A DNA stretch of 10,350 nucleotides, from the IMG/VR virus record IMGVR_UViG_2617270945_000014; one strand, 5' to 3'. Under the pieces are notes generated by a model. It saw only the letters and a program-made list of their open reading frames with translations, did no database searches and had not been told where the DNA came from. Of this stretch, positions 1 through 10,350 are shown in pieces (position 1 is the stretch's first letter; every line of letters starts with the position of its first letter). This stretch comes from a virus. Taxonomy: Duplodnaviria > Heunggongvirae > Uroviricota > Caudoviricetes. The position numbers and the translations under genes are program-made.

Positions 1-22
1 GTAAGCGTAAAGCCAATGCCGT
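1..22. repeat. IS66 left terminal inverted repeat (extent approximate)
   Basis: gtaagcgtaaagccaatgccgt; the first 8 nt are a perfect match to the reverse complement of the right end, with partial matching beyond. Confidence 0.6.
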
Positions 23-82
23 CTGTAACACCTGCTCCTTGCAGACTAAATTAGAGCTCCTTCTAAATTAGACGGAGTTCTA

Positions 83-520
83 TTGATGGATAAACCTACA
101 GACTGGCGCTCCGGAACCCGCCGGATATTTTCTAATGAATTTAAACTTCATATGGTTGAACTGGCTTCGAAACCAAATGCCAATGTTGCACAACTGGCCC
201 GGGAACATGGCGTTGATAACAACCTGATTTTTAAATGGCTACGCCTCTGGCAAAGAGAAGGACGTATTTCTCGTAGAATGCCTCCAACTATTGTAGGCCC
301 TACAGTATCACAATCTTTTCCGGCCTCTCCGACTCTGGTTCCAGTGGAACTTATCGACACCCCGCGCTGTGCTACAGATGCTCCTGCTCCGGGGGCATTA
401 TCAGTTGCTTGTGCAGCTTCCTGCCATGTGGAATTCCATTACGGTAAAATGATGCTGGAAAATCCTTCACCAGAGCTGCTCACGGTGTTGATCCGTGAGC
501 TGACCGGGAGGGGACGATGA
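83..520 (+). CDS. tnpA: IS66-family accessory protein TnpA (orf1)
   Basis: 145-aa ORF, first gene inside the IS; its stop overlaps the start of the next ORF (ATGA at 517-520), as is usual for IS66 orfA/orfB. Confidence 0.8.
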   Translation: MMDKPTDWRSGTRRIFSNEFKLHMVELASKPNANVAQLAREHGVDNNLIFKWLRLWQREGRISRRMPPTIVGPTVSQSFPASPTLVPVELIDTPRCATDAPAPGALSVACAASCHVEFHYGKMMLENPSPELLTVLIRELTGRGR

Positions 521-867
521 TTTCACTCCCATCAGGTACCCGTATCTGGCTCGTTGCCGGCGTTACTGATATGCGTAAATCCTTCAACGGTCTGGGGGAG
601 CAGATACAGCATGTGCTGGATGATAACCCCTTCTCCGGTCACCTGTTTATCTTCCGTGGCCGACGGGGAGACACGATTAAAATCCTGTGGGCTGATGCTG
701 ATGGTCTGTGCCTGTTCACCAAACGCCTTGAGGAAGGTCAGTTTATCTGGCCTGCGGTGCGTGACGGTAAGATATCCATTACCCGCTCGCAACTGGCAAT
801 GCTCCTCGATAAGCTGGACTGGCGTCAGCCAAAAACATCCCGCCTTAACGCACTGACAATGTTGTAA
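517..867 (+). CDS. tnpB: IS66-family accessory protein TnpB (orf2)
   Basis: 116-aa ORF with the characteristic IS66 Orf2 sequence (…IWLVAGVTDMRKSFNGL…FIFRGRRGD…KILWAD…), translationally coupled to orfA. Confidence 0.85.
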   Translation: MISLPSGTRIWLVAGVTDMRKSFNGLGEQIQHVLDDNPFSGHLFIFRGRRGDTIKILWADADGLCLFTKRLEEGQFIWPAVRDGKISITRSQLAMLLDKLDWRQPKTSRLNALTML

Positions 868-897
868 AAAACGCCGGGCCGGATTATAAAAACGGCC

Positions 898-2511
898 ATG
901 AGTCAGAAATACCTCATTCGCATCGCTGAGCTGGAAAGGCTGCTCTCTGAGCAGGCTGAAGCCCTCCGTCAGAAAGACCAGCAACTGAGTCTGGTTGAAG
1001 AGACGGAGGCCTTCCTGCGCTCTGCACTGGCACGTGCCGAAGAAAAGATCGAAGAAGATGAGCGAGAAATAGAGCATCTGCGGGCTCAGATAGAAAAACT
1101 GCGCCGGATGCTGTTCGGAACCCGTTCTGAAAAACTGCGTCGTGAGGTTGAACAGGCTGAAGCCCTGCTGAAACAACGCGAGCAGGAAAGCGATCGTTAC
1201 AGTGGGCGTGAGGATGACCCGCTGGTTCCCCGCCAGTTGCGACAGTCGCGCCATCGTCGTCCGTTACCGGCACATCTCCCCCGTGAAATATACCGCCTGG
1301 AGCCTGAAGAAAGCTGTTGCCCGGAGTGTGGCGGTGAGCTGGATTATCTGGGGGAAGTCAGCGCAGAACAACTGGAACTGGTGAGCAGCGCCCTGAAAGT
1401 GATCCGCACAGAACGGGTAAAAAAAGCCTGTACAAAATGTGACTGCATCGTTGAAGCACCGGCGCCGTCCCGCCCGATAGAGCGTGGTATCGCGGGCCCC
1501 GGATTACTTGCCCGCGTGTTAACGGGAAAATACTGCGAACACCTGCCACTGTATCGTCAGAGTGAAATCTTTGCCCGACAGGGTGTCGAACTGAGCCGTG
1601 CATTACTCTCCAACTGGGTTGACGCGTGCTGCCAGTTAATGACGCCGCTGAATGATGCCCTGTACCGTTATGTGATGAATACCCGCAAGCTTCACACTGA
1701 CGACACACCGGTAAAGGTACTGGCACCGGGCCTGAAAAAGACGAAAACAGGGCGCATCTGGACGTATGTCCGGGATGATCGCAATGCGGGTTCGTCATCT
1801 CCTCCGGCGGTCTGGTTCGCGTACTCATCGAACCGGCAGGGGAAACACCCGGAGCAACACCTCCGCCCCTTCCGGGGTATCCTGCAGGCGGATGCGTTCA
1901 CAGGTTATGACAGGCTGTTCAGTGCAGAACGTGAAGGTAGTGCGCTGACAGAAGTTGCGTGCTGGGCTCATGCCCGGAGAAAAATCCACGATGTATACAT
2001 CAGCAGCAAAAGTGCGACGGCAGAAGAAGCCCTGAAGCGAATCAGTGAACTGTACGCCATCGAGGATGAAATACGGGGATTACCAGAGTCAGAGCGTCTT
2101 GCAGCCAGGCAGCAGCGAAGCAAAGCGTTACTGACGTCGCTGCATGAATGGATGGTGGAGAAGAATGGCACGCTGTCGAAAAAATCCAGACTGGGCGAAG
2201 CGTTCAGCTATGTACTGAATCAGTGGGACGCCCTCTGTTATTACAGTGATGACGGTCTGGCGGAGGTGGACAATAACACAGCGGAAAGAGCGCTTCGTGC
2301 AGTCTGTCTCGGAAAGAAAAATTACGTGTTCTTCGGTAGCGATCACGGCGGCGAGCGTGGAGCACTGCTGTACGGGCTGATCGGCACCTGCCGTCTGAAC
2401 GGTATCGATCCGGAAGCGTATCTGCGCCATATTCTGAGCGTACTGCCGGAATGGCCCTCCAACCGTGTTGACGAACTCCTGCCATGGAACGTAGTACTCA
2501 CCAATAAATAA
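898..2511 (+). CDS. tnpC: IS66-family transposase (orf3/TnpC)
   Basis: 537-aa ORF with an N-terminal coiled-coil/leucine-zipper-like region, a CxxC…CxxC zinc-finger-like motif (CPECGG…CTKCDC) and a DDE-type core, which is the IS66 transposase architecture. The stop lies 30 bp before the right IR end. Confidence 0.9.
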   Translation: MSQKYLIRIAELERLLSEQAEALRQKDQQLSLVEETEAFLRSALARAEEKIEEDEREIEHLRAQIEKLRRMLFGTRSEKLRREVEQAEALLKQREQESDRYSGREDDPLVPRQLRQSRHRRPLPAHLPREIYRLEPEESCCPECGGELDYLGEVSAEQLELVSSALKVIRTERVKKACTKCDCIVEAPAPSRPIERGIAGPGLLARVLTGKYCEHLPLYRQSEIFARQGVELSRALLSNWVDACCQLMTPLNDALYRYVMNTRKLHTDDTPVKVLAPGLKKTKTGRIWTYVRDDRNAGSSSPPAVWFAYSSNRQGKHPEQHLRPFRGILQADAFTGYDRLFSAEREGSALTEVACWAHARRKIHDVYISSKSATAEEALKRISELYAIEDEIRGLPESERLAARQQRSKALLTSLHEWMVEKNGTLSKKSRLGEAFSYVLNQWDALCYYSDDGLAEVDNNTAERALRAVCLGKKNYVFFGSDHGGERGALLYGLIGTCRLNGIDPEAYLRHILSVLPEWPSNRVDELLPWNVVLTNK

Positions 2512-2519
2512 GCGTCAAT

Positions 2520-2541
2520 ACGGTGCTCCGTTGACGCTTAC
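2520..2541. repeat. IS66 right terminal inverted repeat (extent approximate)
   Basis: Reverse complement of 2511-2541 is gtaagcgtcaacggagcaccgtattgacgct, which matches the left end GTAAGCGT and is imperfect thereafter. Confidence 0.6.
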
Positions 2542-2763
2542 AGAGTAAGGAAGCCTGACGGAGATTATCCAGTGACGATAATCGAGGCTGAGGGCTTTCT
2601 TAATCTCGTATCCGCGTCTGCGGTAGTTATGAATTAGCCATTCGGCCTGTTCTTCAGTACATGGTGGGTGTTGGTACCAGTCGGTTTTAAATGCGTGTGA
2701 ACGCCGCCCATGCCGGATGGCAAGGTCGGTATCAGAATTGTGAAATTTGGTTTTGTGCGCCAT
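2542..2763 (-). pseudogene. Prophage gene of unknown function, C-terminally disrupted by the IS66 insertion (possibly rem-like, by position next to hokD)
   Basis: Minus-strand ORF 2515-2763 runs from native DNA into the IS. The last 8 codons (VSVNGAPY) and the stop are encoded by the IS right inverted repeat (2515-2541), so the native C-terminus is lost. The rem-like guess comes only from synteny with K-12 Qin. Confidence 0.55.
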
Positions 2764-2834
2764 CTGTTTTCTCTGCTGGCGCAGCAGGTGTCAGGTGTTC
2801 AGGCTGACGTGCGAATTGTAAACCAGAATGCCAG

Positions 2835-2862
2835 AAAAAAACAAAACCCGCCGAAGCGGGTT
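2835..2862 (-). terminator. Rho-independent terminator for minus-strand transcription, downstream of hok
   Basis: GC stem AACCCGC / GCGGGTT with a CGAA loop (2845-2862), followed on the minus strand by a U-rich tract (the A-run at 2835-2846 on the + strand). It lies 68 nt past the hok stop. Confidence 0.75.
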
Positions 2863-2930
2863 AAGTGCGGGTGCGTTGAGGATGCCTGACACATCAGAGG
2901 TGGCGAGGGATTTCTCCCCCGCCAGGTCTC

Positions 2931-3086
2931 TTACTCCTCAGGTTCGTAAGCTGTGAAGACAGCGACCTCCGTCTGGCCGGTTCGGAGTCGTACCTCGCAG
3001 AGGTCTTTCCTCGTTACCAGTGCCGTCACTATGACGGTTAAACAGATGACGATCAGGGCGATTAACATCGCCTTTTGCTGCTTCAT
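2931..3086 (-). CDS. hokD: Hok/Gef-family type I toxin (small membrane-depolarising peptide), HokD/RelF-like
   Basis: 51-aa product MKQQKAMLIALIVICLTVIVTALVTRKDLCEVRLRTGQTEVAVFTAYEPEE, recognised from memory as near-identical to E. coli HokD/RelF and close to Gef/HokC. It has one transmembrane helix and the conserved Cys. Start taken at the internal ATG (3084-3086) rather than the 70-aa in-frame extension. Confidence 0.9.
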   Translation of the reverse strand: MKQQKAMLIALIVICLTVIVTALVTRKDLCEVRLRTGQTEVAVFTAYEPEE

Positions 3087-3323
3087 AGCCTGCTTCCCCT
3101 TGCCTTTCGGCACGTAAGAGGCTAACCTACATTTGTGAGACATAGATTGGGCCTCAGATTAATGTTAAGCGTCTTGCAGGACGCGAAATGTTAACTGGGG
3201 CTTTTCTCTATCTGCCTTTCAGTGTTCATGCCTGAGACAGATAGCCTCAAGCACCCGCAGCCATTCTACTTAACTCACGTCACCTCGCCAATATGAAATC
3301 AATCAGAAAGGTGATCCATAAAA

Positions 3324-4010
3324 TCACTCCTTCTCTTCTTTTCCGTAGTGGAGTTGGCCAATTTTGATAAGAGGGCGTCCCTGAGATTTGCGGTGTAGAT
3401 TGGTATCGCGCAGAGAATACACACAGCCACAATATTCCTGCTGATAGAATTTTTCGCGCTTGCTGATTTCAATCATACGGGACGAGCCGCCCTGCTTGCG
3501 CCAGTTATAATCCCAGTACACCATACCCGGATAATGCGCAACAGCTCGCCGCCCACACTCGTTAACCTGCTGCATATTTTTCCAGCGTGAAATGCCCAGT
3601 GAACTGCTGATCACACTGAAACCATTTTCAGCAGCGTACAACGCTGTCCGCTCAAAACGCATGTCAAAACACATGGTACAACGGATCCCCCTCTCAGGCT
3701 CCCATTCCATTCCTTTGGCACGTTCAAACCAGTTGTCGGTGTCGTAATCAGCATCGATAAACGGCACGCCGTGTTGTTCAGCAAAGCGAATATTTTCATC
3801 CTTACGAATTAAATACTCTTTCTGAGGATGAATGTTCGGGTTGTAGAAAAAGATGGTGTAGTCGATTCCCGAGGCCTGAAGCGCCTCCATCACTTCACCG
3901 GAACATGGAGCACAGCAAGAGTGCAGTAGTAGTTTGTTTGCCCCGTTTGGGAGCTCCAATTTAGGCCGTTTGAAATCAGCAATAGTCATAAATATTTTTA
4001 TTGGGGTCAT
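3324..4010 (-). CDS. queH: QueH-like epoxyqueuosine reductase homologue (DUF208 family); start codon uncertain (3989 or 4010)
   Basis: 228-aa ORF with motifs recalled for the QueH/DUF208 family: N-terminal [27 protein letters not shown] and C-terminal [11 protein letters not shown] (Cys-rich Fe-S ligand pattern). Neither candidate ATG has a clear Shine-Dalgarno sequence. Confidence 0.65.
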
Positions 4011-4163
4011 GAAAATAGCACAGAGTGTAGCATCAGAGCAGGTCTATCGGGAATATATGTCTAAATCTGGTAATATCTGGTTTTGACGCAAAGCGGACAA
4101 CCACGCTGGCTCTACCCTGCGCCATGAAAATGTCAATTCACATCTGAACTAATGCTCTTTAAT

Positions 4164-4589
4164 CTAGTAACGTCTAAAATACCTAACATTTCCTTGATAA
4201 AATGCCAGTACACGCTGCATAGCTTCGCTCTTCCGGCACTCGCGACAGATTATATTCAGGCGCCTGTCGTAGCGGCGTATTTCGCCGTCTGGTAACGACC
4301 AGATAAGGTCCGGATCAACCACTGCAGGTTTCTTCACCTTTGCCCTTGAGAGTTTTTTGCGAGCATTTTGCCAGTCCTTACGCGCCTGTTCAGACGGGAA
4401 TAACCCGTAACCAGAGTTGTATACATCGCCACTGGCAACCAGCTCTCTGGCGAGAACACTCATCAGATATCTTGTCGCACCTGTCCTGGCTTCCAGTTGC
4501 CGCAACGTCTCGCGACCGCTCAGACGTACAAGTTCAACAACCTGCCCTTTAATTTTTTCCCGCTCTTCTTGTGTAAATACTTTTGCCAT
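4164..4589 (-). CDS. Ren-like protein (lambda ren family) with an extended N-terminal region
   Basis: C-terminus NIICRECRKSEAMQRVLAFYQGNVRYF resembles the lambda Ren C-terminus (…FKECRQSAAMKRVLAVYG…) as recalled. It sits after the replication genes, as ren does in lambda. Start at ATG 4589, preceded by GGAGG; the ORF track's start at 4604 is a TTG. Confidence 0.6.
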   Translation of the reverse strand: MAKVFTQEEREKIKGQVVELVRLSGRETLRQLEARTGATRYLMSVLARELVASGDVYNSGYGLFPSEQARKDWQNARKKLSRAKVKKPAVVDPDLIWSLPDGEIRRYDRRLNIICRECRKSEAMQRVLAFYQGNVRYFRRY

Positions 4590-4604
4590 AAGCGCCTCCG
4601 GCAA

Positions 4605-5375
4605 TCACTTTTCCGATACAACACGGCGGGAAGAATCAGTAATCTGTCGAACAATATCCCGGTGCTTGTTCAGCTCCCGCAGCGCGGCGCAGACTCGCTC
4701 CCACTTCTGAACATCACTTTTCGCCCTGCGCAGCGCCAGGTTTGCCCTGCGAAGGGACGGAAAAATCAGCTCATCTGCTTGCGTTTCGGTAAACGATGGC
4801 AACGGCTGCACAATGTCCGCCACAGTTTCTGTTTTAATTTCTTCCTGTGTTGCGGCTTCCCGGACTGGTAACGCAGCACCTGCTGGCTGAGGAAAGGCCT
4901 TACCATCACTTTCCGTTACCAGCGCGGCTTTCGGCTCTGCTGGTAAATTATCGCCCGGCATGCAGTAACGAAATTTACCGTTCTGATTAACGCGTGCCAG
5001 CCGCCCCGTTGCGGTTACCACCGCCAGCGTGGAAGCAACCTTGCGAGTACTGACACTGAACTTACCCGCCAGTTCCTCACACGTTTTAGCCCCATCCTGA
5101 CCGATAAACTCAATCATCATGTCTGCGGTAACTTTTTGTTCGACCTCCCCGGTCAGCATATCCTGTGCTTCAGATTTTACTGGCCGCTCTTCGGTTACCC
5201 GGGATTCACCTTCGCCAGCCAGAAACCAGGTGTGACCAGTTTTATCAACGACGCCTTTTCTTTTGAGTTCCCACAGCTCGTTGACAGCCTCTTCACGACT
5301 GATTCCAAGGCGAGCTGCCACCACATGTGAAGAGGCTTTTTTCAGTGCTTTCAGTGCGTCAGATACGGTTTCCAT
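4605..5375 (-). CDS. Hypothetical prophage protein with two winged-helix-like segments (possibly DUF1627-type)
   Basis: 256-aa ORF with a GGAGGA Shine-Dalgarno sequence 8 nt upstream. Its stop abuts the start of the Ren-like gene, suggesting an operon. Function is unknown; the DUF1627 label is a weak recollection. Confidence 0.6.
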   Translation of the reverse strand: METVSDALKALKKASSHVVAARLGISREEAVNELWELKRKGVVDKTGHTWFLAGEGESRVTEERPVKSEAQDMLTGEVEQKVTADMMIEFIGQDGAKTCEELAGKFSVSTRKVASTLAVVTATGRLARVNQNGKFRYCMPGDNLPAEPKAALVTESDGKAFPQPAGAALPVREAATQEEIKTETVADIVQPLPSFTETQADELIFPSLRRANLALRRAKSDVQKWERVCAALRELNKHRDIVRQITDSSRRVVSEK

Positions 5376-5396
5376 TAAAATTTCCTCCGGACAAAA

Positions 5397-6143
5397 TTAC
5401 TTCACAACCCTCATATTGCTGACATTTGGACGCCAGCTATCCCAGTTAAACGTCACCCATCGACCACCGTTCATGGTCATGCGGTCCATAATCCTCTCAC
5501 CAAGAAGCGTACTCATTGCGGCATGATTCAGGTTTGTTAACATCCCGACACTGCACAGTGATGCTGTCCGGCGATCAATTATCTGGTGCAATACCACCTG
5601 CTCGTTTTTCGTCTCCCGCTGAACGCCTATTTCATCCAGGACCAGCAAATCAACCCCGCAAAGCTCCTGTAAAAATTTTTCCCCGGATTTGCCGTTGTCG
5701 TAGCTGTCATGCAACACGCTCATGACGTCAGACACGGTGACGATAATCACGCTGCGCCCCTTCACCATCAGCCGGTTGCCCATCGCCGCTGCAAGGTGAT
5801 TTTTCCCGGTGCCGGTTTTACCGCTGAACACAAAATTCGTGCACCCGGTCATCAGTTCGTCAGCTATGGATTTGGCCTGGCTCAGCGCGTATTTTTGCCC
5901 GTCGTTCTGCACCTGATAATTTGCAAACGAGCATTTGCTGTGCAGAGGCTGGATGCCCGAACGATTCAGGATTTTTTCCACCCGCAACTGGCGATTCTGG
6001 CGGTTAATCTCCTCGCTGCGTTTTCGTCCTTCAGCAAGTTGCCATTCCCGCCACTCCTCCACCGTCCGGTACGGTGGAACCGACCCCTGTGGTGCAAGTC
6101 TGCGAATACGTTCAAGAACCCCAACTGCCGCAATGTTTTTCAT
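5397..6143 (-). CDS. DnaC/IstB-like AAA+ replication helicase-loader (Rac YdaV-like, lambda P functional analogue)
   Basis: 248-aa ORF with Walker A (GKTGTGKNHLAAA) and Walker B (DLLVLDEIG) motifs, located immediately downstream of the O-like initiator gene. Confidence 0.85.
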   Translation of the reverse strand: MKNIAAVGVLERIRRLAPQGSVPPYRTVEEWREWQLAEGRKRSEEINRQNRQLRVEKILNRSGIQPLHSKCSFANYQVQNDGQKYALSQAKSIADELMTGCTNFVFSGKTGTGKNHLAAAMGNRLMVKGRSVIIVTVSDVMSVLHDSYDNGKSGEKFLQELCGVDLLVLDEIGVQRETKNEQVVLHQIIDRRTASLCSVGMLTNLNHAAMSTLLGERIMDRMTMNGGRWVTFNWDSWRPNVSNMRVVK

Positions 6144-6149
6144 GACACG

Positions 6150-7112
6150 TCACCCCCTGAATCCCGGCGGTATTTCAGTGTCCGGTTCAGAAATGTGATT
6201 CACGCAACGCTGCGCAGGCGAACGCCCCAGGCGGATAACCAGTTCATCCCATTTTTCCCGGAGTTTTGCCGGACTCATGATGTTTTTTACCCAGAACGAA
6301 TCCCGCTGGAGACGCCCAAACATTTCACAAATTTGTCTGTGAGTTCTGCCATCCAGCATCCGCATTGTGCGAACGTCATTGGCCCATGCTGTCCAGTTGG
6401 GTTCTTTCGGTCTAGTGATCTCGCCATCATAGCTGGCCGCCTGCTCGTAAAGACTCACGATTCGTCCCCAGATCCACTGTGCGCACACCAAATCTTCCTG
6501 ACTTCCCCACTGGCGTTTTTTCGCACTGAACACAACCGCGTCAGGGTGTCGGGTTAAAAAATCCTGTTCAGCCGTCTGCGGGTCCGGTTGCGAAGCGTCC
6601 GGACAAGAAGATCTTTTATCTGACGGATCAGGTTTTAATACTGACGGATCGGGGTCAATCATCGCCCCCCTAATCGGCAGTTTTTTATCAACAGTTGATC
6701 CATCAAAATTTGACGGGTCAACCGTTGAGGGGGCAATATTTGACGGGTCAACTGTTAACGGGTCATTTTTTGCCGGGCTAATTTTTCTTTTCGGTTTATA
6801 TGACTCACGCGCCGCCGCCGCAGCTGCTTCGAGTTTTTCCACATTAAGCCGATAGATATTGCTTACATTACGCCCACCGACCTTACGCTCTTCCTTCGTC
6901 AGCCAGCCCTCTTTCGCCAGTTCTGCAATAGCCGATTTCACTGTGGATTCACTTCTTGCACCGATCTGACGCCGGATAGTTTCAATGGCAGGCCATGACA
7001 CGCCCTCGTCATTGCTGTAGTCTGCAAGACGGGCCATAACCGCCACCCTGGATAAGATCATGCCGGTGAAGGCGCACCCTTCCCAGACAAGACCATGAAG
7101 CTTGCTGCTCAT
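6150..7112 (-). CDS. Replication initiator, lambda O-like (Rac YdaU-like); N-terminal HTH domain and internal repeat region
   Basis: About 320 aa from the first ATG at 7112 (the ORF track's longer start at 7127 is a GTG). The N-terminus has a winged-helix-like segment (WPAIETIRRQIGARSESTVKSAIAELAKEGWL). The middle contains peptide repeats (TVDPSN…TVDPSN…TVD) encoded by the DNA iterons. Confidence 0.8.
   Translation of the reverse strand: MSSKLHGLVWEGCAFTGMILSRVAVMARLADYSNDEGVSWPAIETIRRQIGARSESTVKSAIAELAKEGWLTKEERKVGGRNVSNIYRLNVEKLEAAAAAARESYKPKRKISPAKNDPLTVDPSNIAPSTVDPSNFDGSTVDKKLPIRGAMIDPDPSVLKPDPSDKRSSCPDASQPDPQTAEQDFLTRHPDAVVFSAKKRQWGSQEDLVCAQWIWGRIVSLYEQAASYDGEITRPKEPNWTAWANDVRTMRMLDGRTHRQICEMFGRLQRDSFWVKNIMSPAKLREKWDELVIRLGRSPAQRCVNHISEPDTEIPPGFRG
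6684..6790. repeat. Putative replication origin: ~30-bp-period iterons inside the O-like gene, followed by an AT-rich tract
   Basis: Palindromic cores TCAACAGTTGA (6688-6698), TCAACCGTTGA (6718-6728) and TCAACTGTTAA (6748-6758) are spaced exactly 30 bp apart. TTGACGGGTCA occurs at 6710-6720 and 6740-6750. An AT-rich stretch follows at about 6776-6800. This matches the ori-lambda arrangement of iterons within the O gene. Confidence 0.7.
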
Positions 7113-7134
7113 AAAACCCCCGAACACCGTGCTT

Positions 7135-7560
7135 TTAGTGCATCACCACAGCATTCCCTGCCGGGCCGCCGCGATTCATCTGGTCATACAAAACAACCGC
7201 TGACGCAACAAAATCATCGACATCCTTCCCCAGCCGATCCCTCCGTTCGACGATCTCACGGTAATATTCAGAACTGTGGCTGCGCATACGGGCCACCAGC
7301 AAAGGCGGCATCGCCTTTTCGATCGCCGGTAACAGAGCCTGCATTTTTTCAACAGCATCAGGGGTGTCTTTCTCTACCCAGCGGAAAATTTTCTGGGTAT
7401 TGCGAGCCAGGGCTTCCGGATGGCTGTCGTCATACAGTTCCGGGAACGTCATACCCAACTCAAAATAAGCCTGGGTTATTCCAGCTGCTGGAACTTTTTC
7501 GCCATCAGGACGCGCCCAGGCATTCATCGCCATGCGGATGTGTTCATGCTTGATTTTCAT
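7135..7560 (-). CDS. YdaT-like protein (Rac prophage YdaT family; in the cII position)
   Basis: 141-aa ORF with AGGAG 9 nt upstream of ATG 7560, overlapping the end of the YdaS-like gene by 17 nt. Size and position match Rac ydaT. Sequence identity is recalled, not searched. Confidence 0.65.
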   Translation of the reverse strand: MKIKHEHIRMAMNAWARPDGEKVPAAGITQAYFELGMTFPELYDDSHPEALARNTQKIFRWVEKDTPDAVEKMQALLPAIEKAMPPLLVARMRSHSSEYYREIVERRDRLGKDVDDFVASAVVLYDQMNRGGPAGNAVVMH

Positions 7561-7825
7561 GAATCAAGCTCCTAGAAAGTGGTTGTGTTAACGTTTTGGT
7601 ATCTTCCAGCTCGGGCCAAATATTCATCCAATCAAAAGGCCTTAGTTGCTGACGTGTAACTTCACCATTACTGGCTCGCTCAATAAGGACACATAACGAT
7701 GCCCCTAACACTTGACCTTTACTCAATGCCTTTCTTAGATAACCGATGCTGGTACCACACTCGCATGCAAACATACGCTGTTCATCTGACGAAAGAGAAT
7801 TGAGAAATATTCTTAATTCTTCCAT
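7544..7825 (-). CDS. Cro-like HTH regulator (YdaS/DicC-position), first gene of the early-right operon
   Basis: 93-aa ORF with AAGGAG 7 nt upstream of ATG 7825. It is divergent from the repressor gene and contains an HTH-like segment (CGTSIGYLRKALSKGQ). Confidence 0.7.
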   Translation of the reverse strand: MEELRIFLNSLSSDEQRMFACECGTSIGYLRKALSKGQVLGASLCVLIERASNGEVTRQQLRPFDWMNIWPELEDTKTLTQPLSRSLIHENQA

Positions 7826-7854
7826 AGCTACTCCTTAGTAAACACAGCAAAGAA

Positions 7855-7930
7855 TACCCACAGGTAAACAAAAGTCAATACCCATAGGTTGTTTACCTTG
7901 CGGTAATCGCATCTATTATTTACCTATGGA
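7855..7930. promoter_or_regulatory. Divergent promoter/operator region between the cro-like and repressor genes (OR-like)
   Basis: Three copies of a 12-bp dyad motif: TACCCACAGGTA (7855-7866), TACCCATAGGTT (7879-7890) and TACCTATGGA (7921-7930, overlapping the repressor ATG). There is also a perfect 10-bp inverted repeat, AGGTAAACAA (7862-7871) / TTGTTTACCT (7889-7898). Confidence 0.65.
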
Positions 7931-8345
7931 CAAATATGAATTTAGACGACAGCAACTCATCAAAATTCGTGATGAGAAATGCGATGGTAAAGCGGTTAAC
8001 GTGGCCAGAAAGATCGGGCGCGAGCCTTCTTATGTATCAAGAATGTTGTACCCAGAGGGGAAAAAGGGAAAAAAACGGATCGCTGATGATATGGTGGAGA
8101 TTATCGAAGAGTCCTTTGGGTTACCCCGGGGATGGATGGATGGTATCGTTTCATCATCAACGAACACAGCCTCCAGTTATGAAACAAGGGTTCTAACGCC
8201 ACGACAACGTATTTTTTTAGATCTCTTAGACGAACTGCCAGAAAGTGAAGCGGATAAATTATTAAAAACTCTTGAAGAGAAAAAACAGTATTACAATATG
8301 ATCTACGAAGAAATCCGTAAAAAGAAAGCACAAAACGCATCATAG
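7926..8345 (+). CDS. Prophage repressor, DicA/RacR-like HTH protein (no S24 peptidase domain)
   Basis: 139-aa ORF divergent from the cro-like gene. It has an N-terminal HTH-like region, and its C-terminal LPESE…LL motif resembles DicA (…LPESEQ…) as recalled. No Shine-Dalgarno sequence precedes the ATG, so the mRNA may be leaderless. Confidence 0.7.
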   Translation: MDKYEFRRQQLIKIRDEKCDGKAVNVARKIGREPSYVSRMLYPEGKKGKKRIADDMVEIIEESFGLPRGWMDGIVSSSTNTASSYETRVLTPRQRIFLDLLDELPESEADKLLKTLEEKKQYYNMIYEEIRKKKAQNAS

Positions 8346-8385
8346 CTCACCAAACAACTAGTCACCAGTTAAGACACCGCAAAAA

Positions 8386-8426
8386 TTTACCCATGGGTAT
8401 TTACTTTTTAAATACCTATGGGTATC
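8386..8426. promoter_or_regulatory. Second operator cluster (OL-like) downstream of the repressor gene
   Basis: The perfect palindrome TACCCATGGGTA (8388-8399) and TACCTATGGGTA (8413-8424) lie 25 bp centre-to-centre, the same motif and spacing as in the OR-like region. Confidence 0.6.
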
Positions 8427-8610
8427 CTTCTTTTCATACCAACCCACCCCGCCCCACAGAATGCAGGGCAATACTTCGAGTTACCAGGCAGTGGTCAGGG
8501 GTTAAGTAGCCAGCCCGAGGCGTAAGAACATGACGGCAGGGTTCAACTTTAATAACTATGCAGCAGGTTTTTGTTCCGCTACCCCGGCGTTAAGGGGAAA
8601 TGAGGTCAGC

Positions 8611-8763
8611 ATGGATACTATCGATCTTGGCAACAGCGAATCTCTGGTATGTGGCGTGTTCCCCAACCAGGACGGTACGTTCACCGCGATGACGTATACC
8701 AGAAGCAAAACGTTTAAAACTGAAGCTGGCGCGCGTCGCTGGTTAACCAGAAACACTGACTGA
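8611..8763 (+). CDS. DUF1391 small protein (YdfA/YdaF-like), first gene of the early-left operon
   Basis: 50-aa product MDTIDLGNSESLVCGVFPNQDGTFTAMTYTRSKTFKTEAGARRWLTRNTD, preceded by GAGG 5 nt upstream. The longer 77-aa ORF from 8530 lacks a Shine-Dalgarno sequence. Sequence and position match YdfA/YdaF as recalled. Confidence 0.7.
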   Translation: MDTIDLGNSESLVCGVFPNQDGTFTAMTYTRSKTFKTEAGARRWLTRNTD

Positions 8764-8774
8764 TGAGGTTGACG

Positions 8775-9095
8775 ATGGAATTTAAAGATTTACCAGTACC
8801 ATTCCAGGAAATGGCATCGAATGTGGTTCGCTCTCAACTGGCGACTCTTGACCTGAGTACCGTAGAAAAAGAAACCATCGACAATATATCCGGTAACGTA
8901 CGCCGAGCCTTTATCGGGCTGTACGAAGAGAAGCAGCTCTCTGATAACCAGGATTTACATGAAAAATACTTCCTGGATCTAATGGACATCATTGATAAGG
9001 GGTTTGGCTTGTTAATGAAAAAGAAAGGGATTCGAATAGAACCCCTTGAAAATTACTTTGCAACAAAAAGCATTAATTCTTTTGATTCAAAATAA
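8775..9095 (+). CDS. Hypothetical protein, 106 aa, in a low-GC cassette (alternative start 8763)
   Basis: ORF in a markedly AT-rich block. GAGG lies 6 nt upstream of ATG 8775, and the alternative ATG 8763 overlaps the upstream stop (TGATG). Acidic/Lys-rich composition; no recognisable motif. Confidence 0.5.
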   Translation: MEFKDLPVPFQEMASNVVRSQLATLDLSTVEKETIDNISGNVRRAFIGLYEEKQLSDNQDLHEKYFLDLMDIIDKGFGLLMKKKGIRIEPLENYFATKSINSFDSK

Positions 9096-9348
9096 GAGAA
9101 TTAATTACAGACTTAACATGCTCTTTCTCATGATTGAAGCTCTCATGATTGAAAGTGCCGGGTTGAAGCGAGTCGATATAATCAACAAGACTCTGTCGTA
9201 CGACTTCATTTTTATCCATAACAGATGCAAGAAATGAAATTGCTAAAAGAGTTATATCACTACGCGCCGCAGCATGTTGCAATGCTTTATCAAAATTATT
9301 AATCTGGCGTATCAGGGAGTTAATGATTTCATCATTTTCAGTCGACAT
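9073..9348 (-). CDS. Hypothetical protein, 91 aa, convergent with the 106-aa ORF
   Basis: Strong AGGAGG Shine-Dalgarno sequence 5 nt upstream of ATG 9348. AT-rich coding region; 3' ends overlap the + strand ORF by 23 nt. The upstream in-frame extension to 9561 is GC-rich, Arg-rich and begins with TTG, so it is judged non-coding. Confidence 0.55.
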   Translation of the reverse strand: MSTENDEIINSLIRQINNFDKALQHAAARSDITLLAISFLASVMDKNEVVRQSLVDYIDSLQPGTFNHESFNHEKEHVKSVINSLILNQKN

Positions 9349-9683
9349 TTCACCCTCCTGAGGGTTGGTGATTAAGGAGTTCTCCACGGGTGAGGTGGAG
9401 TGCGTGCGCCGGACACGGGTGAGCATCCGGCACTGACAGTTTACTGAAAGGATATTTCCCTGAAAAGTCAGACCATAACGCGAAAGCGCCCGGCGAGGTA
9501 GCTGGTTCATAGATAGCCTGTCGTTAAATTTTCGTCGACCGTGCGTTTCCGGTTGTGGCAATCCGCGAAATGGCGCGGCGGTAAGTATGGCGGGGTTATT
9601 CCTTCCCCCGTTGAGGACACCGGGTTGTCAGGTTGACCATACGCTTAAGTGACAACCCCGCTGCAACGCCCTCTGTTATCAAT

Positions 9684-9741
9684 TTTCTGGTGACGTTTGG
9701 CGGTATCAGTTTTACTCCGTGACTGCTCTGCCGCCCTTTTT
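9684..9741 (+). ncRNA. dicF: DicF small RNA (ftsZ-targeting sRNA of Qin/Kim-type prophages); 5' end approximate
   Basis: Sequence TTTCTGGTGACGTTTGGCGGTATCAGTTTTACTCCGTGACTGCTCTGCCGCCCTTTTT matches DicF as recalled. It ends in an intrinsic terminator and lies immediately upstream of dicB, as in K-12. Confidence 0.75.
9699..9741 (+). terminator. Intrinsic terminator forming the DicF 3' end
   Basis: GGCGG (9699-9703) … CCGCC (9731-9735) stem, followed by TTTTT (9737-9741). Confidence 0.65.
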
Positions 9742-9910
9742 AAAGTGAATTTTGTGATGTGGTGAATGCGGCTGAGCGCACGCGGAACAGTTAAAACCAA
9801 AAACAGTGTTATGGGTGGATTCTCTGTATCCGGCGTTAATTGTTAACTGGTTAACGTCACCTGGAGGCACCAGGCACCGCATCACAAAACTCATTGTTGA
9901 GGGCGCGATA

Positions 9911-10099
9911 ATGAAAACGTTATTACCAAACGTTAATACGTCTGAAGGTTGTTTTGAAATTGGTGTCACTATCAGTAACCCTGTATTTACTGAAGATGCC
10001 ATTAACAAGAGAAAACACGAACGGGAGCTATTAAATAAAATATGCATTCTTTCAATGCTGGCCCGTTTACGTCCGATACAAAAAGGATGCTGGCAATGA
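9911..10099 (+). CDS. dicB: Cell-division inhibitor DicB (MinC-dependent)
   Basis: 62-aa product MKTLLPNVNTSEGCFEIGVTISNPVFTEDAINKRKHERELLNKICILSMLARLRPIQKGCWQ, matching DicB as recalled. GAGGG lies 8 nt upstream of the ATG. Confidence 0.85.
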   Translation: MKTLLPNVNTSEGCFEIGVTISNPVFTEDAINKRKHERELLNKICILSMLARLRPIQKGCWQ

Positions 10100-10287
10100 A
10101 TACAGCATTTGCACTTGTTCTGACAGTTTTTCTTGTTTCCGGAGAGCCAGTTGATATTGCAGTCAGTGTTCACAGGACAATGCAGGAGTGTATGACTGCA
10201 GCAACCGAACAGAAAATTCCCGGTAACTGTTACCCGGTCGATAAAGTTATTCACCAGGATAATATCGAAATCCCGGCAGGTCTTTAA
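10096..10287 (+). CDS. ydfD: YdfD-like small lysis-associated membrane protein (63 aa)
   Basis: MNTAFALVLTVFLVSGEPVDIAVSVHRTMQECMTAATEQKIPGNCYPVDKVIHQDNIEIPAGL with an N-terminal transmembrane helix. Its start overlaps the dicB stop (ATGA at 10096-10099), and AAGGA lies 9 nt upstream. Confidence 0.75.
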   Translation: MNTAFALVLTVFLVSGEPVDIAVSVHRTMQECMTAATEQKIPGNCYPVDKVIHQDNIEIPAGL

Positions 10288-10350
10288 AACAGTTCCGTAA
10301 TAAATATCCGGTTTCATTCTTATATGCCAGCAATGGCAGGGATTTGTTCA

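Follow-up and report, generated by a model that had tools for sequence, protein, structure and literature searches.

The DNA analysed here (the window, 10,350 bp, IMG/VR record IMGVR_UViG_2617270945_000014) is the reverse complement of the whole draft contig JNRC01000106.1 (assembly GCA_000704485.1), and its two ends are the contig ends. Very probably, positions 2541-10350 hold the early genes (immunity, replication and early-left) of a lambda-like prophage that is common in Escherichia coli and lies adjacent to ompW, and positions 1-2541 are an insertion of the insertion sequence (IS) ISEc47 in a small gene. An earlier sequence-only reading had described the window as a mosaic in which a Rac-like immunity/replication module was joined to the dicF-dicB-ydfD and hokD modules of Qin. 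The window is a patchwork relative to K-12 Qin and Rac, but what it displays is ordinary lambdoid modularity and not a special hybrid. The Rac-plus-Qin look is best explained as arising because lambdoid phages swap modules at conserved joints and because the decayed K-12 remnants each kept different pieces of the backbone. The arrangement is common and already annotated, and lambdoid mosaicism is textbook knowledge, so that the region carries little weight as a discovery.

Over its 7,810 bp, the region 2541-10350 gave one ungapped alignment at 99.9% identity with the ompW-adjacent prophage of E. coli O112ab:H8 Res13-Lact-EA06-22 (NZ_CP062910, locus L001), which differs from the window by the ISEc47 insertion found in the latter. 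Three further closed genomes matched the region at 99.8% or higher, and at least 80% of it was held in one place by 476 of 5,426 complete E. coli genomes. The sequence-only reading had itself proposed collinearity with one known prophage as the observation that would overturn a mosaic, and from 2541 to the end of the window this collinearity was observed. In L001, one flank of the region carries exonuclease, excisionase and integrase genes and then ompW, and the other flank carries DUF968, RusA, Q and methyltransferase genes, tRNA genes and the genes for holin, lysozyme, terminase, portal, capsid and tail. For the repressor, Cro-like, DicB and DUF1482/YdfD proteins, the ompW prophage of enteropathogenic E. 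coli E2348/69 and NZ_CP062910 share their RefSeq accessions, and in E2348/69 YdaT, the O-like gene, DUF977 and hokD are in matching order, but the DnaC-like, DUF1627 and queH genes are missing and other cargo stands in their place. This backbone is also that of the isolated phage HannyBb, in which Rfam confirmed hok/sok and DicF. Copies of an STnc100-family small RNA and tRNA-Arg/Ile genes were seen between Q and the lysis genes in ompW prophages (L001 15021-15698; L004, the ompW prophage of strain GN04530, 6472-6661).

To place the window relative to K-12, Qin (L003) and Rac (L002) were compared with it at the DNA and protein level, using their annotation. Nucleotide matches to Qin covered 2837-3100 (hokD, 98.1%), 8573-8742 (ydfA, 91.2%) and 9363-10350 (DicF-dicB-ydfD, 97.4% over 988 bp), with shared order and orientation; DicF was identical, and amino acid identity was 90% for DicB, 97% for YdfD, 88% for YdfA and 98% for HokD. 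The description of these modules as Qin-like therefore holds. DicF, dicB and ydfD follow one another on one strand, and in both elements dicBF appears to form an operon of the lambda left promoter (PL) type downstream of a short repressor. Unlike the window, Qin has DicA/DicC immunity, ydfB-ydfC where the window has another insert (8743-9362), and rem; of ydfA-ydfB-ydfC, only ydfA is present in the window. Qin also lacks sok/mok and the replication genes, whose loss from K-12 had been correctly noted and whose place is taken by relBE-ydfV-flxA, and it has a 96-amino-acid YdaT-family stub, ydfX (L003 17347-17637), comprising the N-terminal ~93 codons of a 173-amino-acid YdaT-family (CII-type) gene. 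What the window keeps and Qin lost is thus the sok/mok leader of hokD, the replication genes and a full-length ydaT-family gene. Since the YdaT family is native to the Qin lineage too, the division into YdaS/YdaT for Rac and Dic for Qin is an artefact of what survived in K-12.

Nucleotide matches to Rac covered 5216-6186 (77%), 4924-5045 (84%), 8435-8598 (87%) and 8620-8744 (86%). The functions stand in the same order in both, the proteins YdaV (80%), YdaW (54%, truncated in Rac) and YdaF (84%) have counterparts in the window, and the flanks of the immunity cassette are conserved (7537-7566 at 97%; 8435-8598 at 87%). All the genes that the sequence-only reading had listed, namely DicF, DicB, YdfD, HokD and the YdaS/YdaT/O-like/DnaC-like series, were found in the sequence, with the caveat that 1-2541 is an IS and not prophage. 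The label of a Rac-like immunity/replication module, however, held only in part. The function order and the DnaC-like protein support it, but a RacR homologue is absent (the window repressor gave no blastp or tblastn match to RacR), YdaT passes the cut-off of its Pfam family but is 31% identical, and the similarity of the Cro-like protein to Rac YdaS (below the Pfam cut-off for the family) is limited to 54% identity across 28 amino acids. In the place of YdaU (DUF1376) there is an unrelated O-like initiator followed by the YdaV counterpart; a relationship of this initiator to YdaU was ruled out, since the shared part is confined to the last 19 residues. Rac, in turn, has kilS-kilR-sieB for DicF-dicB. 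"Rac-like" would thus suit the order of functions and one gene, and not the immunity module.

A closer relative of Qin was found in the prophage of strain CFE299 (L006, NZ_OZ465017), which is 97-99% identical to Qin over cspB-ydfT-ydfU-rem-hokD, dicC-dicA-ydfA, dicB-ydfD-exo and intQ, and which has, unlike K-12, the hok leader/sok, an AAA ATPase, DUF977, a phage O gene, the 173-amino-acid YdaT-family gene, a full exonuclease and an excisionase. In K-12 Qin, ~4.8 kb of the CFE299-type element (L006 4266-9058) is swapped for relE-relB-ydfV-flxA-ydfW (L003 15289/17358), which removed the hok leader/sok, the AAA ATPase, DUF977, phage O and the 3' part of the YdaT-family gene; L006 12666-14849 (the remainder of the exonuclease, xis and the start of int) was also lost, at the IS2E site. 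The window resembles the CFE299 prophage in hok with its leader (94%), DUF977 (89%), the 3' half of O (86%; window 6154-6619), ydfA (95%) and dicF-dicB-ydfD (95%), and differs from it in the dicA/dicC immunity, the 173-amino-acid YdaT-family protein, rem, the Qin-type integrase and the AAA ATPase in place of the DnaC-like/DUF1627/queH genes. Judged by these alignments, the CFE299-type prophage is the real intact counterpart of Qin and the better reference for working out the original cotranscription of Qin genes, a use for which the window had been put forward.

The possibility that the window is a specific hybrid of a Rac-type and a Qin-type phage, close to an intact ancestor of K-12 Qin, is very improbable and already largely refuted by these comparisons. 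In its favour, DicF, dicB, ydfD and hokD are 97-98% identical to Qin at the nucleotide level, the DnaC-like and DUF1627 proteins are 80% and 54% identical to Rac YdaV and YdaW, and sok and the replication genes, missing in Qin, are kept. Yet the immunity cassette is neither that of Rac nor that of Qin, YdaT is of the CP-933P type (95%), the O-like gene is not ydaU and resembles the intact Qin-type O more closely over its 3' half, and the near-identical relatives sit at ompW with an integrase unmatched by intQ at the nucleotide level. Backbone order is common to the ompW prophage and Qin (lysozyme 83%, holin/ydfR 81%, DUF968/ydfU 84%, hokD 98%, dicF-ydfE 96%), with no similarity in integrase or immunity genes. 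Closeness to an intact Qin ancestor is therefore true only in the loose sense of a common backbone order, whereas the CFE299 prophage, with the same integrase and dicA/dicC as Qin and intact where Qin is deleted, is far closer. An assembly chimera, in which short reads from different co-resident prophages were misjoined, was likewise considered, as the contig is a short draft one with one end at an IS and the other in repeated prophage DNA. It was rejected as having next to no probability, because several closed genomes carry the same 7.8 kb uninterrupted, at 99.8-99.9%, and because the closed GN04530 genome and sister draft assemblies also have an IS66-family element joined to the prophage at that target.

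The nature of the IS end bears on the remaining alternative, that the element of the source strain is a decayed remnant like Qin, with ISEc47 at the edge of a deletion that took the Q, lysis and morphogenesis genes. No base of the contig precedes the IS, so that whatever adjoins it there is hidden, and IS-associated deletions are documented in Qin (IS2E adjoining ydfE/intQ). The IS itself is complete, with the IS66 features of tnpA-tnpB-tnpC, terminal inverted repeats starting GTAAGCG and an 8-bp target duplication of which the right copy is visible: by direct reading, GTAAGCGT starts at base 1 and its reverse complement ends at base 2541, and a 2541-bp copy that is 100% identical and annotated as ISEc47 is present on plasmid NZ_CP042885 of another strain. 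The uninterrupted site in L001 reads ...TTCAGAGTAAGGAAGCC..., and in L004 AGAGTAAG stands on both ends of an ISEc23 copy at the identical target. Beyond that copy the rest of the prophage continues with the remnant of the truncated gene, DUF968, RusA and Q, so that the most direct reading of ISEc47, too, is that of a simple insertion, here into a small gene located between the replication genes and Q. Short-read contigs are moreover expected to break at a multicopy IS. A decayed remnant is accordingly held to be rather unlikely, and it would be compatible with the identification of the region as an ompW prophage.

The immunity switch has a lambdoid layout, in which a Cro-type regulator gene and a short repressor gene diverge from an operator cluster of the right operator (OR) type, and a further operator pair of the left operator (OL) type lies beyond the repressor gene. 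Motifs resembling the 14-bp palindrome ATACCCATGGGTAT occurred four times in the window (7854, 7878, 8387 and 8412) against 0.29 expected, a number reached in 0 of 200 shuffles, and were confined to OR and OL, as is the case for the shared operators of lambdoid phages. Each OL operator had one mismatch to ATACCCATGGGTAT, and divergent promoter-like hexamers were found within the OR region by the promoter scan. For the 139-amino-acid repressor no Pfam family was found and a PDB sequence search gave chance-level matches alone; it showed a weak C-terminal likeness to DicA (33% over 45 amino acids), and the Cro-like protein gave no match to DicC.

The edges 7566/7567 and 8434/8435 of this cassette recur in the comparisons with both Rac (7537-7566; 8435 onwards) and L004, in which 7567-8434 is swapped for a P22-Cro/LexA-type pair and the aligned flanking backbone blocks are 96-98% identical. 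As the same edges are seen against two different prophages, 7567-8434 is an exchangeable immunity unit. It was present in 824 of the 5,426 complete E. coli genomes (15%; 822 at 80% coverage or more), including EC958 and E2348/69, and in the phage isolate collection no match above 75% identity was found, with partial matches at 69-75%. Directly downstream of OL/PL, a C-rich sequence, CATACCAACCCACCCCGCCCCACAGA, was seen in the window (8435-8460), in the heteroimmune ompW prophage L004 (20225-20250) and, with a one-base gap, in Rac (L002 ~10596-10621), marking the right joint of the cassette; a leader, a recombination joint and an antitermination site are candidates for its role.

The YdaT protein is identical at 133 of 140 residues (95%) to the crystallised YdaT of CP-933P (PDB 8BT1), compared with 31% identity to Rac YdaT and 37% to Qin YdfX over 83-94 residues. 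In published work, YdaS and YdaT act as Cro and CII analogues, and footprinting in CP-933P placed the site 5'-TTGATTN6AATCAA-3' at the end of ydaS (PMC9986795). The palindrome TTGATTTTCATGAATCAA is the single perfect match to this site in the window, where ~0.0006 exact matches are expected by chance, and it straddles the point at which the Cro-like gene ends and ydaT begins. In the lambdoid arrangement, Cro is followed by a CII-type regulator whose binding site lies where cro and cII meet, and the position seen here is of the type of the lambda promoter for repressor establishment (PRE). The prophage CP-933P/Sp12 of O157:H7 (PaaR2-YdaS-YdaT) thus shares with the window its YdaT, the TTGATTN6AATCAA operator at the ydaS/ydaT junction, a short repressor without peptidase domain and the OR/OL layout, but the window repressor is another protein and is not followed by a paaA2-parE2 toxin-antitoxin pair; the basis of the link to CP-933P is the PDB sequence together with published papers.

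The sequences show the identities of the genes, the operators, the boundaries of the modules, and how collinear and how prevalent the region is, whereas the use of the promoters, the extents of the operons and the binding of the repressor to its operators are predictions. Taken together with published systems, this layout suggests the following scheme. In the lysogen, the repressor would silence two divergent early operons by binding the ATACCCATGGGTAT-type operators at OR (7850-7933) and OL (8387-8425). Its lack of a peptidase domain, shared with DicA and PaaR2, points to probable control by an antirepressor and not to RecA-dependent cleavage. Upon derepression, a minus-strand transcript from the right promoter (PR type) is predicted to run through the genes for Cro-like protein, YdaT, O-like protein, DnaC-like protein, DUF1627 and DUF977 to queH. 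The spacing is tight from the Cro-like through the DUF977 genes, and the sole intrinsic-terminator-like site that the scan found on the minus strand between 7600 and 2500 is that of hok. The hok/sok locus after queH may be a self-contained unit, with its own promoter-like and terminator-like sites. On the plus strand, a PL-type transcript would cover the ydfA-like gene, the variable insert, DicF, dicB and ydfD, continuing into exo-xis-int in intact relatives. This proposal parallels the published description of dicBp of Qin as PL-like and controlled by DicA, a short repressor under antirepressor control; dicB or kil downstream of the repressor has also been published for several lambdoid prophages of the YdaS/YdaT type. 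By analogy with CP-933P, for which this was shown, YdaT at 7550-7567 may drive a PRE-type leftward transcript toward the repressor gene.

Several points weigh against this account of the region. As the window is a whole draft contig, the integrase, Q, lysis and structural genes of the source strain's own copy lie beyond view, and ISEc47 could be the endpoint of a deletion instead of a simple insertion. Binding of the repressor to the OR and OL sites is predicted from the position and form of those sites, and the PL-like promoter was read by eye and lies below the scan threshold. The OL hairpin, which was flagged by the terminator scan at 8388-8424 and was taken here as the operator pair, could equally serve as the terminator of the repressor gene. 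The viability of this exact immunity type is also unproven, no match to the cassette above 75% identity having been found in sequenced phage isolates.

The coordinates of the features are collected in Table 1.

Table 1. Features of the window, with strand and the evidence on which each assignment is based (aa, amino acids; nt, nucleotides; ORF, open reading frame)
Feature	Position	Strand	Evidence
ISEc47 (IS66 family), complete	1..2541	+	NCBIfam IS66 TnpA, TnpB and transposase matches; ends read directly
ISEc47 genes	tnpA 83-520, tnpB 517-867, tnpC 898-2511	+	NCBIfam matches
Small phage gene, function unassigned (phrog_1212), 3' end replaced by IS	2515..2763	-	PHROG 2.7e-26
Right copy of IS66 8-bp target-site duplication, AGAGTAAG	2542..2549	.	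Uninterrupted L001 site and L004 flanks
Complete hok/sok/mok type I toxin-antitoxin locus	2845..3291	-	Rfam, Pfam, K-12 comparison, promoter/terminator scan
hok terminator-like hairpin	2862-2845	-	Terminator scan
hokD	2931-3086	-	PF01848 1.6e-22; 98% aa identity to K-12 HokD
Mok-type ORF, in frame with hokD, 70 aa	2931-3143	-	ORF list
sok/hok leader	3081-3256	-	Rfam sok, full model, 120.5 bits
hok/sok promoter-like site	3291-3263	-	Promoter scan
queH (cobalamin-independent epoxyqueuosine reductase family), prophage cargo	3324..4010	-	PF02677 1.1e-65
DUF977/Ren-like protein	4164..4604	-	PF06163 9e-28; phrog_142 Ren-like exclusion protein 5e-46
DUF1627 protein, full-length counterpart of Rac YdaW	4605..5375	-	PF07789 8e-98; 54% aa over 154 residues to YdaW
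DnaC/IstB-like helicase-loader ATPase	5397..6143	-	PF01695 7e-19; 80% aa, full length, to Rac YdaV
O-like replication initiator, N-terminal HTH_36	6150..7127	-	phrog_391 2e-115; PF13730
YdaT, CII-equivalent regulator	7135..7560	-	PF06254 37.7 against cut-off 21; phrog_163 CII-like activator
Cro-type regulator, distant relative of YdaS family	7544..7825	-	phrog_35 4.8e-23; PF15943 25.8 bits, cut-off 30
Perfect YdaT recognition palindrome, TTGATTTTCATGAATCAA	7550..7567	.	Exact match to published 5'-TTGATTN6AATCAA-3'
Exchangeable immunity cassette (Cro, OR, repressor, OL), 868 bp	7567..8434	.	Recurrent edges against Rac and L004
OR-type operator cluster between divergent Cro and repressor genes	7850..7933	.	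Repeat families D3, D4, I3, I6; motif search
OR sites	7854-7867, 7878-7891	.	Match to 14-bp palindromic consensus ATACCCATGGGTAT
Weaker OR sites, TTACC-N4-GGTAA-like	7893-7906, 7920-7933	.	Read by eye
Short prophage repressor, 139 aa, without S24 peptidase domain	7926..8345	+	phrog_5736 transcriptional regulator 6e-70
OL-type operator pair	8386..8425 (sites 8387-8400, 8412-8425)	+	Inverted repeat I4; motif search
PL-like promoter TTTACC-17-TAAATA, overlapping OL pair	overlapping 8386..8425	+	Read by eye
YdfA/YdaF-type DUF1391 gene, predicted first gene of PL-type operon	8608..8763	+	PF07151 2e-27
Low-GC variable segment in place of Qin ydfB-ydfC	8743..9362	.	GC 0.38-0.41; unaligned to Qin, Rac, L004
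orf110 (110 aa)	8763-9095	+	phrog_6937, function unassigned
Antisense hypothetical ORF, 91 aa	9073-9348	-	Annotated in L001
DicF small RNA	9685..9736	+	Rfam RF00039 76.7 bits, gathering score 48; base for base the same as K-12 dicF
dicB, MinC-dependent cell division inhibitor	9911..10099	+	PF05358 2e-37; NCBIfam CellDivInhibDicB 131.8 bits; 90% aa to K-12
ydfD (DUF1482)	10096..10287	+	PF07358 2e-26; 97% aa to K-12 YdfD

For hok/sok, the Hok frame, the overlapping Mok-type frame and the Sok antisense/leader structure of a type I toxin-antitoxin locus were all present. Rfam sok matched the window, the ompW prophages and HannyBb, and gave no match in K-12 Qin, where the similarity to the window ends 14 nt before the hok start codon, at 3100. 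As a by-product, the K-12 hokD can be seen to have lost its sok/mok leader in the same rearrangement that removed the replication genes of Qin. No statement on the loss of sok from K-12 hokD was met in the literature searched, and this point rests on the sequence comparison and Rfam. Two further by-products are the recognition of K-12 ydfX as the stub of a YdaT-family gene and the conclusion that the right reference for rebuilding Qin operons is an intact prophage of the Qin type, for example that of CFE299, and not the window.

Among the other minus-strand genes, the replication initiator and helicase loader lie downstream of the cII equivalent, as in lambdoid phages. The queH gene, annotated as QueH by RefSeq in L001 and L004, lies between hok/sok and the DUF977 gene; the copy of the isolated phage HannyBb is 93% identical and is annotated there as hypothetical, and in PHROGs the function of the family is unassigned. 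A literature search for prophage-borne QueH turned up nothing relevant. E. coli normally uses QueG, and a phage-borne alternative tRNA-queuosine enzyme may therefore merit attention.

On the plus strand, the DUF1391 protein is 88% identical to Qin YdfA and 84% to Rac YdaF at the amino acid level. The antisense frame in the variable segment gave no PHROG match (tested as the longer frame 9073-9561) and no Pfam or PADLOC match; it is followed by a terminator-like hairpin at 9047-9025 and lies opposite to the early-left genes, like sieB in Rac. PADLOC defence models gave nothing meaningful for orf110, the antisense frame, DUF977, DUF1627 or orf82. According to published work, the dicBF locus occurs in different prophages, with multiple copies in O157:H7. 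No DicF-like RNA was found in Rac by Rfam search, and the window segment 9731-9895, from the 3' end of DicF to the start of dicB, is ~79% identical to Rac L002 9250-9416. This match was dismissed as a sign of a DicF relative in Rac, since it covers just the 3' end of the kilS small RNA and the kilR leader. The order of a small RNA followed by a small division inhibitor is kept between the window prophage and Rac, with kilS being no DicF homologue by Rfam.

One consequence of the YdaT similarity would reach beyond a single prophage. The short repressor, which has no Pfam domain or solved relative, appears to use ATACCCATGGGTAT operators, and YdaT and its operator are shared with heteroimmune prophages such as CP-933P, so that YdaT of one resident prophage could conceivably activate repressor synthesis in another, although this is speculative and considered improbable. 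If true, such cross-talk would couple the lysis-lysogeny decisions and the DicF/DicB expression of co-resident prophages.

With regard to the gene cut by the IS, an intact homologue of this phrog_1212 gene is annotated in L001 (19951-20223), and the truncated product has 75% amino acid identity to a part of Qin without annotation that lies between ydfU and rem. Excluding the IS, L004 is 99.4% identical to the window over 2542-7566. In GN04530, a different IS66-family member, ISEc23 (L004 11610-14139), occupies the identical target AGAGTAAG in the same small phage gene; the two elements align over 2,124 bp at 94.6% identity, and the left 417 bp of ISEc23 are unalignable. The sharing of one target by IS66-family elements suggests either an insertion hot spot or the replacement of one IS by another. 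The identical IS-truncated 82-amino-acid protein was also observed on contig L010, adjoining relB-relE-hokD as in K-12 Qin.

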